Part shown: positions 61,397 through 64,000 of the stretch, piece after piece | Numbering within the stretch: position 1 is the first letter of the stretch | How the letters are laid out: each line of letters opens with the position of its first letter | Source: Pseudomonadota bacterium | Lineage (GTDB): Bacteria; Pseudomonadota; Alphaproteobacteria; Rhizobiales; Rhizobiaceae | DNA: 64,000 bases | Direction: 5' to 3' | NCBI GenBank assembly: GCA_039814425.1 | Contig: JBCCBE010000002.1 | Coordinates: 5,400-69,399 of the forward strand | Made by a program: the position numbers and the translations under genes | Notes under the pieces: model-generated | What the model saw: only the letters and a program-made list of their open reading frames with translations | Told to the model about the DNA's origin: nothing | Database searches by the model: none

Positions 61397-62098
61397 ATGG
61401 ATATAGAAAAAACTCAAGTAATCGTAGTCGACTCGCATCCTATAGTCAGAGAAGGGTTGCGTCAGTTTCTGGAAAGCGATGGTTTTTGCAGTGTTGTGGC
61501 CGAAGCAGGTGATGGTGAGTCAGCTCTTTATGCGTGTGAAAATCACCAACACAGCGTTTTGCTTACAAATGCGACGCTTCCAGGAAGCGATATTTTTGAA
61601 GTTATCCGACGCGCCAAAAAATCCAATCCTGAAACCAAGGTCATCATCTGTTACGTTTCTGAAGACTTAAGTGTGCTTAGCGAATTCAACAAATGTGGAA
61701 CTGACGGTTTCATCGGCCAATTAGCCAGCTCCGAAGAATATTCCGCCGCTGTGAAGACAGTCCTGGCGGATGCAACATTTTTCTCAAAGAACCTGACAGA
61801 GATAATATTCCGGATCAAAAAAGATAATATCGATCAATCCAACGCTTATGGTTTGACCGGGCGTGAACTTGATATTCTGGCGCTGTTGTCAAATGGTCTT
61901 TGCAATAAAGAGATTGCAAATCAGTATGATCTTTCGGTGCGTACCGTGGAAACGCATCGCCTCAATATTCGTAGAAAAACAAGTTCCAACACCCTCAGCG
62001 ATTTGGTGCGTATTGCCCGCTCACTTGGGATTTCTCATATGGGTAGCGCATCTTCCCAGACGATGATCCAACCCGGATCATCACAGAATACGGTTTAG
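61397..62098 (+). CDS. NarL/LuxR-family response regulator with degenerate (pseudo-)receiver domain
   Basis: C-terminal LuxR HTH LTGRELDILALLSNGLCNKEIANQYDLSVRTVETHRLNIRRK. The N-terminal receiver fold has Asn where the phospho-Asp is expected (SVLLTNATLPG) and Gln where the conserved Lys is expected (DGFIGQ). Confidence 0.85.
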   Translation: MDIEKTQVIVVDSHPIVREGLRQFLESDGFCSVVAEAGDGESALYACENHQHSVLLTNATLPGSDIFEVIRRAKKSNPETKVIICYVSEDLSVLSEFNKCGTDGFIGQLASSEEYSAAVKTVLADATFFSKNLTEIIFRIKKDNIDQSNAYGLTGRELDILALLSNGLCNKEIANQYDLSVRTVETHRLNIRRKTSSNTLSDLVRIARSLGISHMGSASSQTMIQPGSSQNTV

Positions 62099-62106
62099 GT
62101 AGAGCT

Positions 62107-62706
62107 ATGTTACATTTGAAAATTCTATCAGTTCTTACGACAATTGCAGTGTTGTATCCGCTGCAAACCCATGCATCGCAGCCGGTTGGGGAAACACAGG
62201 CTGCTTCAGTTTCAACCCATCAGTTTGAAACCGGTAGTGGCCACAGCGTGCATGTTATTGATCAAGATCTCCCGGAGTTTCTTCGAGAGGCTGCGCGTCG
62301 TAACGGCTACGAAATCACGATTACAAAGCGGGTGCGTGGTAAGTTAAAGCAGAAAACGCTGCCGCTTGATCTTGGTCAGATTATGCCACGGATAGCACCG
62401 CAGTTTGATTTGAAATGGCATTTTCAACAAAAGCAATTGTTTGTCTCAGTTGGCTCAGAAAACACCAGCAGGCTGATTTATCTGGGTGCCATGGACATGG
62501 AAACACTGGATGTTGCTATGTTGAATGCCGGGATGAATTCAAAGGCATTTGATCTGTCCTACGTTGAAGACAGTAACTCGCTGATTGTAAACGGCCCGGT
62601 CAGTTATATCGCCGGTATTGAGCTGCTAGCAGAATCCTACAACAAAAATCACGAAAATCGAAAAAGCAAAGTCAAAGTGATCCGTTTTGGACATGTCGGC
62701 AATTAA
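62107..62706 (+). CDS. Secretin N-terminal-domain protein (NolW/RhcC1-like split T3SS secretin fragment?)
   Basis: Signal peptide. LPEFLREAARRNGYEITITKRVRGKL...FDLKWHFQQKQLFVSVGSE...LIVNGPVSYIAGIELLAESY follows the remembered N0/N1 pattern of InvG/YscC-type secretins. The ORF ends at 199 aa with no secretin pore domain. Confidence 0.45.
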   Translation: MLHLKILSVLTTIAVLYPLQTHASQPVGETQAASVSTHQFETGSGHSVHVIDQDLPEFLREAARRNGYEITITKRVRGKLKQKTLPLDLGQIMPRIAPQFDLKWHFQQKQLFVSVGSENTSRLIYLGAMDMETLDVAMLNAGMNSKAFDLSYVEDSNSLIVNGPVSYIAGIELLAESYNKNHENRKSKVKVIRFGHVGN

Positions 62707-62797
62707 CAAGCGTTAGACCACATTTCCAATCGGCCGCCTGCAGGTTGACGCAGGGTAGAAACTGAAACGAAACACAAACTTAGAAATGGAGACTCTC

Positions 62798-62986
62798 ATG
62801 AGCGGAAGTAATGCAATTGACGCCACAAACGGAGCTGGTGGTGCTACCGCAGCCGGTGGAAGTGGTAACGGAAACCAGGAGCTTAACCAGGCATTTGATT
62901 ATGCCCTGAAGGAAGCAAGTCAGACACTGACAATTACGACCAAAAAAGGTGCTGATCTTTACGCTATGAAGCAGCGTCCTCAGTAG
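62798..62986 (+). CDS. Small Gly/Ala-rich soluble protein (candidate needle/pilus-type subunit)
   Basis: 62 aa from the ATG preceded by GGAGA (5-nt spacing). Gly-rich N-terminal half, helical C-terminal half, no hydrophobic segment. Followed by a strong hairpin. Confidence 0.4.
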   Translation: MSGSNAIDATNGAGGATAAGGSGNGNQELNQAFDYALKEASQTLTITTKKGADLYAMKQRPQ

Positions 62987-63005
62987 GCGGTTTTAACAGT
63001 AAATT

Positions 63006-63025
63006 CAGACGCCTACGGGCGTCTG
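63006..63025 (+). terminator. Strong stem-loop after the small ORF (possible partial terminator or attenuator)
   Basis: CAGACGCC-tacg-GGCGTCTG, a perfect 8-bp stem. The trailing sequence TCTCGC is only weakly U-rich. Confidence 0.45.
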
Positions 63026-63056
63026 TCTCGCAAATATACCCGTGGAGATGCCACAA

Positions 63057-64000
63057 ATGCAGTCGGAAAATACAATGGTAAATCGAATTCAGGATGGCTT
63101 GTCGGAACGTTCAACCGATTTTGGTTATCTTATCAAGAATGCGGGTAATCAGGCCCGAAATTTCGGACATTTTACGATAGTGGTAACCAATGGTGCACAT
63201 GCGGGCGTAAAACTACAGCAAACAGCTGGAGAAATCACGATTGGTTCGGATGCCAACAATGATATTGTGTTGTTTGCAGATGCACTTGCACCGCATCATG
63301 TCCATGTAGAATTACCGAAGAACATTTTGGCACAAATTCGCATAACGCCGGTTGAAGAGCGTATTGTTCTGGAAGATGGATCTATTGTTGAGGTAGGCCA
63401 ATATGTTGATTTGGATGCCGGTGAGACGTTTTCTGCTGCGAATACCGAGATTGCAATAAACCGGATTGCCGACCCAAAGAGTTTCATAAAGCCGGGATTG
63501 CGCTTATTCGCACTTGTTTGTCTGGTTGCAATGCTGCCGATTGTTTATAGTCTTTTTTCAGGTCTGTTTTTTGGTATTGCGGACGCCGGGTCTAGAGCTT
63601 TAAGCAGCCTCAATCCCCAGATGATCATCAGTAGTTCTGGTTTGCTGGGACGTGGAGTAGATTCAAATCAAAATGATGCAGATGCTTTTGCCTGGACTAT
63701 CAGGACCAAATTGGAAGACTTGAAACTTAATCATCGATTGAAGGTATCAAGCGCCTCTGCGGAAACAATCAGGATCCAAGGAAGCATATCAGATGCAGAA
63801 GTCACGAGCTGGAATGCATTCCTGCGATGGTATGATACCAAGCAAAATTTCCCGCAGCTGATACGGGATGTAAGCAGAACAACCCTGGACCGAAACCTCC
63901 CTGAAGTAAAATCAGTTTGGTTGGATGATCAACCAACAGCATTCCTTAAAGACGGAACCGTTGCAACGGTTGGATCCAGTCTGCCGGATGGATGGAAAGT
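63057..64000 (+). CDS. FHA-domain / single-TM / periplasmic-domain protein, SctD (YscD/EscD/HrpQ)-like; C-terminus cut by window end
   Basis: Translated by hand with no stop through 64000. Not in the ORF track. GGAGA Shine-Dalgarno upstream. FTIVVTNGAHAGVKLQQTAGEITIGSDANNDIVLFADALAPHHVHVEL is the YscD-type cytoplasmic FHA pattern. TM helix LRLFALVCLVAMLPIVYSLF, then a periplasmic region. Confidence 0.55.
   Translation, partial: MQSENTMVNRIQDGLSERSTDFGYLIKNAGNQARNFGHFTIVVTNGAHAGVKLQQTAGEITIGSDANNDIVLFADALAPHHVHVELPKNILAQIRITPVEERIVLEDGSIVEVGQYVDLDAGETFSAANTEIAINRIADPKSFIKPGLRLFALVCLVAMLPIVYSLFSGLFFGIADAGSRALSSLNPQMIISSSGLLGRGVDSNQNDADAFAWTIRTKLEDLKLNHRLKVSSASAETIRIQGSISDAEVTSWNAFLRWYDTKQNFPQLIRDVSRTTLDRNLPEVKSVWLDDQPTAFLKDGTVATVGSSLPDGWK

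Follow-up and report, generated by a model that had tools for sequence, protein, structure and literature searches.

A stretch of 64,000 nucleotides from contig JBCCBE010000002.1 of the 'Pseudomonadota bacterium' assembly GCA_039814425.1 (the whole of this 64-kb stretch is called the window below) ends, at its 3' edge, in four consecutive and co-directional open reading frames (ORFs) on the plus strand. A first-pass annotation, made from the letters alone, had taken these four genes for the start of a T3SS-like cluster (T3SS, type III secretion system) that is cut off by the window edge. Their positions and common strand were recovered both in the ORF listing and in the raw sequence, and none of the four is interrupted in the window. 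Here, the proteins that they encode, the genes that follow them in related genomes, and the T3SS family to which they would belong are examined. The features of this four-gene head are:

61397-62098, plus strand: atypical regulator of the NarL/LuxR family, 233 aa, with a degenerate receiver and a GerE helix-turn-helix
62107-62706, plus strand: free-standing secretin N0-N1 module of RhcC1/NolW type, 199 aa, with a signal peptide
62788-62791, plus strand: GGAG Shine-Dalgarno sequence of the small gene, six nucleotides before the ATG at 62798, read from the sequence
62798-62986, plus strand: gene of a small Gly-rich protein, 62 aa, in the nopA position
63006-63025, plus strand: G+C-rich hairpin of 8 bp between the small gene and sctD, without a U-tract
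63057 to beyond 64000, plus strand: sctD of RhcD/Y4yQ type, cut by the window edge

The start of sctD is placed at 63057, with the start called by NCBI, 63075, as the alternative; the full-length protein is 330 aa, and the gene is expected to end about 67 nucleotides beyond the window edge. The SctD of the window is 100% identical to the NCBI hypothetical protein AAF217_00835, which is recorded on a 75.6-kb contig of a 'Pseudomonadota bacterium' metagenome-assembled genome (MAG). The start of the small gene at the ATG of position 62798 agrees with the NCBI record and with independent gene calls on an identical short contig (L001; 2.6 kb). Related loci were taken from a Rhizobiaceae MAG (CBDFNP01; L002 and L093), in which a genome scan found an SctD 46% identical to that of the window, from metagenome contigs (L003-L005), from a Nitratireductor MAG (L006 and L089), from the cultured Zhengella mangrovi (GCA_002727065.1; L090 and L092), and from a 4.1-Mb contig (ctg3487c of ERZ25042306; L094). 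Protein searches further returned 46 clusters of SctD, 160 clusters of the small protein, and approximately 100 clusters of close SctU homologs. The order of the four genes is identical in every related locus examined, and this recurrence shows that the arrangement is no chance pattern.

Proteins encoded by the four-gene head

In every relative, the cluster begins with the regulator gene. The product of this gene matches the Pfam families Response_reg (PF00072; E 5e-15) and GerE, the LuxR helix-turn-helix (PF00196; E 4e-14), and its best NCBIfam matches are regulators of the NarL/NarP/FixJ type. The NarL/LuxR domains named in the first-pass annotation are thus present, but the protein is no ordinary NarL-type response regulator, the phospho-acceptor Asp being absent from its receiver. 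Five members of the clade formed by the window and its relatives (window, L002, L004, L006, and L090) were aligned with Escherichia coli NarL, in what we take to be its reference sequence, with the phospho-acceptor Asp at D59 and the conserved receiver Lys at K109. The position of the phospho-acceptor D59 is occupied by Asn in four clade members and by Ser in one, and that of K109 by Gln in four of the five and by Met in Zhengella (L090), whose receiver is no longer detected by Pfam. By these residues, the regulator is of a pseudo-receiver LuxR type. It probably acts independently of phosphorylation and is a probable cluster-specific transcription factor.

The second gene encodes a protein that begins with a cleavable-looking signal peptide (MLHLKILSVLTTIAVLYPLQTHA/SQ) and that had been described as the N0/N1 region of a T3SS secretin and nothing more. 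This description proved accurate: the NCBIfam SctC model TIGR02516 matches the protein (E 6e-16) over profile positions 8-152 of 463 only, and a profile of five N0-N1 proteins of the clade matches the crystallised N0-N1 fragments of InvG (22-171) and EscC (25-155) and nothing further. A tblastn search of the protein against plasmids led to genes annotated as NolW or as 'type III secretion protein' on rhizobial plasmids. The truncated secretin form is a stable family and not a broken gene, because nearly all of its best 150 representatives in a library of 1.84 billion proteins are approximately 185-260 aa long and, where longer ones occur among them, the extension is N-terminal; in none is there a C-terminal secretin extension. 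The 199-aa protein is of RhcC1/NolW type, and it is a probable periplasmic connector to SctD. Abby and Rocha (PMC3459982) have shown that an ancestral T3SS secretin survives in RhcC1 as its N-terminal portion, the one in contact with SctD, and that RhcC2 is a Tad-derived secretin that was recruited later.

The third gene had been described as encoding a 62-aa Gly-rich protein with a Shine-Dalgarno sequence of its own and a trailing hairpin, and both elements were located at the positions listed above. The 160 clusters of homologs are all unnamed and belong to no Pfam family. Their N-terminal half is hypervariable and rich in Gly, Ala, Ser, and Asn. In contrast, a C-terminal motif, GN..L..AFDYAI.EA.QTLTITTKKGADLYALKQRPQ, shows hardly any variation among 57 sequences, and the C-terminus stays nearly constant where two genomes share no more than 35-50% identity in SctD. 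Because the C-terminus is almost invariant, the protein would seem to be under strong purifying selection. In an AlphaFold2 (AF2) model, residues 1-23 are disordered and residues 24-59 form a single helix, with a predicted local distance difference test (pLDDT) score of 83-92. The protein is homologous to a 55-aa ORF upstream of sctD in the Rhc-II cluster of Phyllobacterium (41-48% identity over the C-terminal 35 aa), and when plasmids were searched with the 62-aa protein by tblastn, nothing was matched at E<=1.

By its position the small gene recalls nopA, whose product is described as 63-71 aa long and helical apart from its N-terminus, and which lies immediately upstream of rhcD in a unit of the order nopC-nopA-rhcD-rhcV-y4yS in Rhc-I (PMC3973906). 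The location of nopA directly upstream of rhcD was confirmed on the locus of Sinorhizobium sp. CCBAU 05631 (S. fredii type; L105), which also supplied the NopA sequence used here. The protein of the window is of similar size, at 62 aa, is helical except for its N-terminus in the AF2 model, and is encoded directly upstream of sctD. Against this one NopA sequence, the family profile reached a probability of 2% in hhalign, with only TTKKGAD aligned with TTKKAAD, and a MAFFT alignment gave 24% identity. The label 'NopA homologue' was rejected on the non-significant hhalign result, and 'NopA-position analogue, homologue of the Rhc-II small ORF' is preferred. Size, gene position, conservation pattern, and the helix of the predicted structure together suggest that the 62-aa protein is probably a secreted filament subunit, of either a pilus or a needle.

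The hairpin that follows the small gene has the sequence CAGACGCC-tacg-GGCGTCTG (z = -2.4). A comparable hairpin of unrelated sequence occurs at the same place in L002, L006, and L090 and not in L004, that is, in four of five genomes when the window is included. This suggests that the hairpin is structurally conserved, possibly for differential expression, and an attenuator or a 3'-end stabiliser is a possible function. A second paralogue of the small gene was observed just after sctU and convergent with the cluster in several relatives (L007 7951-8136, L092 11770-11961, and L094 11170-11370, each on the minus strand; L089 5118-5309). The corresponding region lies beyond the end of the window. 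In some genomes this paralogue adjoins genes whose products are Ca-binding proteins with RTX repeats or EF-hands (at 3047-4934 in L089 and 12485-15714 in L092) and may be T3SS substrates.

The fourth gene had been read as the inner-membrane ring protein SctD from its FHA, transmembrane, and periplasmic layout, and the Pfam matches of the window protein to Yop-YscD_cpl, Yop-YscD_ppl_3rd, and Y4YQ_C bear this out. The last of these (PF23893) is matched at E 1e-4 by the incomplete SctD of the window and at 5e-9 by that of L002. An AF2 model of SctD, built from a 34-sequence alignment and with a mean pLDDT of 75.6, comprises:

residues 33-130: FHA sandwich
residues 134-178: long helix, most hydrophobic at about 142-165
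residues 196-269: alpha/beta domain
residues 278-329: small beta domain

The top Foldseek matches of this model are the FHA domain of YscD (4d9v and 4a0e; 25% identity, template modelling score 0.75) and Chlamydia CdsD (3gqs), and a search of the SctD profile against PDB by sequence gave weak FHA matches only (E ~0.02-0.1). The full-length SctD can be aligned from end to end with Y4yQ/RhcD of Sinorhizobium (25% identity over 289 aa, E 2e-13), and also with the SctD of Rhc-II, whereas its alignment with YscD is limited to the FHA domain. When SctD and the N0-N1 protein were searched against plasmids with tblastn, only rhizobial T3SS genes were matched, at 20-30% identity, among them genes of pNGR234b, S. 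meliloti GR4, and Phyllobacterium and genes annotated as NolW. SctD, made up of an FHA domain in the cytoplasm, a single transmembrane helix, and a short periplasmic part, would be the inner-membrane ring protein of the apparatus.

Downstream genes in relatives and placement in the Rhc family

The head, comprising the regulator, the N0-N1 protein, a small protein of 58-62 aa, and SctD, is shared by the Rhizobiaceae MAG (L002/L093), the metagenome contigs L003-L005, the Nitratireductor MAG, and Zhengella mangrovi, and thus by at least six loci. In these relatives sctD lies upstream of sctV, and the head is followed, in the same direction, by a small ORF, a gene of a TPR protein that is a weak match to SctY, sctV, two small ORFs, sctJ, a NolU-sized ORF, sctL, sctN, an SctO-sized ORF, and sctQ, R, S, T, and U. 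The stretch covered in the 4.1-Mb contig consists of the TPR gene and sctV through sctU, and its order is identical to that of the other relatives. The proposal that the four genes begin a T3SS-like cluster is borne out by these successions, in which the heads lead into SctV, J, L, N, O, Q, and RSTU. The export core for which the first-pass annotation had suggested looking downstream, namely SctR, S, T, U, and V and the ATPase SctN, was found together with SctJ and SctQ in every related locus with the head. Between sctO and sctQ there is no sctP/hrpP-like gene: an SctO-sized gene of 146-148 aa is directly followed by sctQ (L003-L005, L092, L093, and L094), and this absence is a listed feature of the Rhc family (PMC3574062). 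BLAST searches with accessory proteins of Rhc-I, Rhc-II, and Ysc (Y4yS, NolB, NopC, NopX, NolU, YscX/Y/I/F/K/O/W, and HrpK) against the clade loci returned nothing significant. In the Nitratireductor MAG, sctV seemingly lies in three pieces in different frames (L006 7582-9697), owing either to pseudogene formation or to faulty assembly.

A neighbour-joining tree (200 bootstraps) was built from the relatives using concatenated SctN, R, J, U, T, S, and V (2264 columns, 18 taxa), with Rhc-I, Rhc-II, Rhc-III, a Paracoccus plasmid, Ysc, Mxi-Spa, an SPI-1-like E. coli plasmid, Hrp1, Hrp2, and a Bradyrhizobium plasmid system as reference clusters. The window itself provides SctD, RhcC1, and the small protein only, none of which is among the seven proteins of the tree. 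The marine clade, as the relatives are called from here on, is monophyletic with 100% support and is sister to Rhc-III with 90% support. The split that separates Rhc-I, Rhc-II, Rhc-III, Paracoccus, and the marine clade from Ysc, Hrp1, Hrp2, and SPI-1 also receives 100% support. The suggestion that a split secretin points to Rhc systems is therefore upheld, the clade falling inside the Rhc family in the core-protein tree. Further, SctR and SctJ of the clade are 52-53% and 43-44% identical, respectively, to their Rhc-I and Rhc-II counterparts, compared with 29-45% for other families. Rhc features found in the clade include the free-standing RhcC1, the short SctD of Y4yQ type, the small gene in the nopA position, the absence of sctP, and the core phylogeny; an rhcC2 in or near the cluster was not among them. 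A T3SS that also branches with the Rhc family was noted on plasmid pPspOM122 of Paracoccus sanguinis (L097, NZ_CP051543.1), where a Tad-like rhcC2 directly follows sctV and where a YscE-like co-chaperone and a small ORF before an sctD-sized gene are encoded.

With these loci as a guide, it is very probable that the four genes of the window are the start of an injectisome cluster of approximately 23 kb, transcribed in a single direction, and that this cluster falls within the rhizobial Rhc lineage, where its subgroup occurs in marine alphaproteobacteria that are Hyphomicrobiales-like. The genes of the clade are annotated as generic or hypothetical in public records, and literature searches returned no description of a marine Rhc subgroup or of a Zhengella or Nitratireductor T3SS. 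The T3SS of Pseudovibrio is of Ysc type and unrelated.

The outer-membrane pore, the proposed working of the system, and alternative readings

Several observations weigh against the assignment of the four genes to an Rhc injectisome. The window ends inside sctD, and the presence of sctV through sctU in its organism would follow from synteny with relatives whose SctD is 31-57% identical. The tree is a neighbour-joining tree only, from which references for SPI-2, Chlamydiales, Myxococcales, and Desulfovibrionales were left out, and no direct homology between NopA and the small protein could be established. Additionally, a secretin C-domain (PF00263) was absent at E<=1 when seven secretin queries were searched against the 64-kb window and 17 clade loci, and because no gene for this domain was found, the apparatus as seen is without a known outer-membrane channel.

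The secretin queries comprised RhcC2 from Phyllobacterium and Paracoccus and five full-length secretins, and controls on the Rhc-II and Paracoccus clusters worked. The reach of the search was the entire window, including the 61 kb upstream of the head, and 4-10 kb on either side of the relatives' clusters. All seven queries reached the N0-N1 gene only, through their first 178 or fewer residues. The Pfam gene tables of the relatives' loci likewise contained no PF00263, and the RhcC2 proteins of Phyllobacterium and Paracoccus had no match in the window or the clade loci; a distant copy may exist. Rhc subgroup III is likewise reported to be without rhcC2 (PMC3574062; PMC3973906) and is nevertheless accepted as Rhc (PMC3574062).

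If the four genes are read as the head of an Rhc injectisome, the system could work as follows. The LuxR-type regulator, having lost its phospho-acceptor Asp, would probably switch the cluster on without classical phosphorylation. SctD would form the outer ring of the inner-membrane base, and its cytoplasmic FHA domain would dock the sorting platform; this role is suggested by the fold and family found here together with general knowledge of SctD function. The free-standing N0-N1 protein would be exported to the periplasm and would attach there to the periplasmic end of SctD, in the manner of full secretins and their N-domains. A role of RhcC1 as linker to the Tad-derived secretin has been proposed by Abby and Rocha (PMC3459982). 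The apparatus would secrete the 62-aa protein, which would polymerise via its invariant C-terminal helix into an extracellular filament on which the variable, disordered N-terminus is exposed. By way of the hairpin that follows the small gene, this abundant subunit may be produced at a surplus relative to the products of the downstream genes. The outer-membrane pore partner, which is not encoded in or near the cluster, would be supplied from elsewhere, if at all.

At somewhat less than an even chance, and ahead of the other alternatives, the clade carries an ordinary Rhc system with a Tad-like rhcC2 elsewhere in the genome and is unusual in nothing beyond its gene order. According to Abby and Rocha (legend to Fig. 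6C of PMC3459982), the rhcC2 gene is often several genes away from the conserved block in Rhc loci; the rhcC2 of Rhc-I belongs to the separate region II (PMC3973906), and the clusters of the relatives were examined only over the flanks given above. However, no secretin domain was found in the 61 kb upstream of the head in the window, nor on either side of the cluster in five independent genomes, and in the nearest subgroup, Rhc-III, rhcC2 is reported to be missing altogether (PMC3574062; PMC3973906).

It is conceivable, though rather unlikely, that the widespread marine clade, perhaps together with Rhc-III, represents a T3SS lineage without a secretin of its own, in which the stand-alone N0-N1 protein would link the ring of SctD either with the secretin of another machine, borrowed in trans (e.g., CpaC/RcpA of a Tad pilus), or with a non-secretin outer-membrane conduit. 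If so, this lineage would be a living example of the intermediate inferred by Abby and Rocha (PMC3459982), in which an Rhc ancestor swapped the C-terminal part of its original secretin for a Tad secretin. Should it be true that no dedicated secretin exists in these genomes, secretin swapping in T3SS evolution would become directly testable.

The absence of a secretin C-domain gene could also be taken to mean that the four genes are relics of a decaying, non-functional T3SS that was inactivated by the loss of its pore-forming secretin, and both the seemingly split sctV of the Nitratireductor MAG and the fact that the related Rhc-II and Rhc-III are without demonstrated function (PMC3973906) point in the same direction. 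This reading is improbable, given that many lineages, with SctD differences of 50-70%, retain all of the genes intact and in collinear order, that the C-terminus of the small protein has hardly changed among them, and that the four ORFs of the window are free of interruptions. Most improbable of all is an origin outside the injectisomes, in a Tad/Flp pilus, a type II secretion system (T2SS), or a flagellar-type export system with an FHA protein and a secretin-N protein: the Gly/Ala-rich small protein is superficially Flp-pilin-like in size and the Secretin_N domain is common to T2SS and T3SS, but the FHA-transmembrane protein and the secretin-like ORF, whose possible membership of non-T3SS families the first-pass annotation had raised, both score best against T3SS families (SctC TIGR02516, Yop-YscD, and Y4YQ_C), the small protein has no hydrophobic Flp-like segment, no Tad genes occur at the relatives' loci, and the SctV, SctJ, SctN, and SctRSTU encoded downstream in relatives, where the SctV and SctN models outscore FlhA and FliI, rule out a Tad, T2SS, or flagellar identity together with the tree.

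Genomic surroundings and comparison with known systems

Upstream of the head, the window contains the following features:

59183-60661, plus strand: collagen-like (G-X-Y) protein of 492 aa with EF-hand Ca-binding motifs in mid-protein and a Gly/Ser-rich helical C-terminus (Pfam Collagen E 2e-33; EF-hand_1 E 3e-8)
60687-60706: terminator of the collagen-like gene
60855-61247, plus strand: ORF of 130 aa inside the gap of 735 bp that separates the collagen-like gene from the regulator

A homolog of the collagen-like protein, comprising the collagen and C-terminal parts, is encoded immediately upstream of the T3SS head in L002 (5915-8026), and none is present at the corresponding place in L003-L006 and L090. 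The protein could be a T3SS-linked secreted or eukaryote-like protein, the link being a lead only. The 130-aa ORF has no Pfam family and no homolog in any related locus; its coding status is doubtful, it probably lies outside the system, and the region may hold the promoter of the cluster instead. A gene of 817 aa of the DAO/FAO_M/GCV_T type (dimethylglycine or sarcosine dehydrogenase-like) was observed at 56542-58995, approximately 2.4 kb upstream of the head, and an 805-aa protein with DAO, FAO_M, and GCV_T is encoded approximately 3 kb downstream of sctU in the Rhizobiaceae MAG (L093 14213-16630). The occurrence of such genes near both clusters may be remnant synteny of the insertion site. 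Elsewhere in the window, a thiamine pyrophosphate (TPP) riboswitch at 9892-10041 on the plus strand, which at 66.7 bits exceeds the gathering score of Rfam RF00059, overlaps the beginning of an ORF at 10025-10762, which is presumably part of a thiamine biosynthesis or transport operon.

To our knowledge, nearly all known injectisomes of Rhc type come from legume symbionts, the others from a small number of pseudomonads that live in association with plants. A large and well-separated Rhc subgroup in marine Hyphomicrobiales, with Zhengella mangrovi as its one cultured carrier, would extend the Rhc family to marine hosts, presumably algae or invertebrates. Zhengella mangrovi would be a tractable organism in which to study the role of the RhcC1 fragment without a nearby rhcC2, and in the small protein of the clade, variable at its N-terminus and invariant at its C-terminus, a candidate for the filament subunit is at hand. 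The clade differs from all described Rhc subgroups in that its genes form one collinear operon with a pseudo-receiver LuxR regulator at its head and in that its carriers are marine and Hyphomicrobiales-like. It is also distinctive in that sctD, sctO, and a TPR gene of YscY-like type are all present, which is the condition of subgroups I and II, while rhcC2 is lacking, which is that of subgroup III. The claim that the gene order matches no canonical layout holds in part: the succession of small gene, sctD, and sctV mirrors the nopA-rhcD-rhcV unit of Rhc systems (PMC3973906), and that of a small ORF, a TPR gene, and sctV mirrors yscX-yscY-sctV.

The nearest branch in the tree is Rhc-III, known from Rhizobium etli CFN42 p42d and CIAT652 pB and represented here by R. 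sophoriradicis pCC511_4 (L100). Like the clade, Rhc-III possesses rhcC1 and has no rhcC2 in its cluster (PMC3574062; PMC3973906), and a small ORF precedes the gene upstream of sctV. Rhc-III has no regulator of TtsI type (PMC3973906). Unlike the clade, it is arranged in two divergent operons, lacks sctO, and carries hrpW/hrpK-like genes, and it has been reported to be without a recognisable sctD and a YscY-like TPR gene (PMC3574062), in contrast to the single collinear operon of the clade, which contains sctD and a gene of sctO size and in which sctV is preceded by a TPR gene. The core proteins of the two are only 24-50% identical, and the hosts of Rhc-III are legume symbionts whereas the clade consists of marine bacteria.

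Rhc-II, as found on pNGR234b, in S. meliloti GR4, on a plasmid of Phyllobacterium zundukense (L087), and as the T3SS-2 of P. syringae, provided the best tblastn matches for the SctD and the RhcC1-like protein of the window. Similar to the clade, it has the homologous small ORF directly upstream of sctD, two ORFs (one of them YscY-like) before sctV, and the order sctJ-nolU-sctL-sctN-sctO-sctQRST. It differs in that rhcC2 stands right after sctV, rhcC1 is divergent from sctD, and no LuxR-type regulator is found at the head; identities to the clade are 22% for SctD, 21-23% for RhcC1, 46% for SctN, and 37% for SctV.

With Rhc-I (S. fredii NGR234 pNGR234a and B. japonicum USDA110) the clade shares a split-secretin N-fragment, there named NolW, a pilin gene of 63-71 aa (nopA) immediately upstream of rhcD and followed by rhcV (PMC3973906), and a short SctD that carries Y4YQ_C and aligns end to end at 25% identity. 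The motif TTKK[GA]AD is the only detectable likeness between NopA and the small protein of the window. Rhc-I differs in having rhcC2, nopB/nopX/nopC, and three separately oriented regions (PMC3973906). It is further marked by ttsI and tts boxes, whereas the regulator of the clade has a GerE/LuxR helix-turn-helix; Rhc-II and Rhc-III are without ttsI (PMC3973906).

The Ysc system of Yersinia contributes the closest solved structure to the FHA domain of SctD, that of YscD, and its yscX-yscY-lcrD order resembles the arrangement of a small ORF, a TPR gene, and sctV in the clade. It differs in its full-length secretin YscC with the pilotin YscW, its longer YscD (419 aa), its YscP, and its needle subunit YscF, a helix-hairpin protein with chaperones, and it lies on the opposite side of the fully supported split in the core-protein tree from the marine clade.

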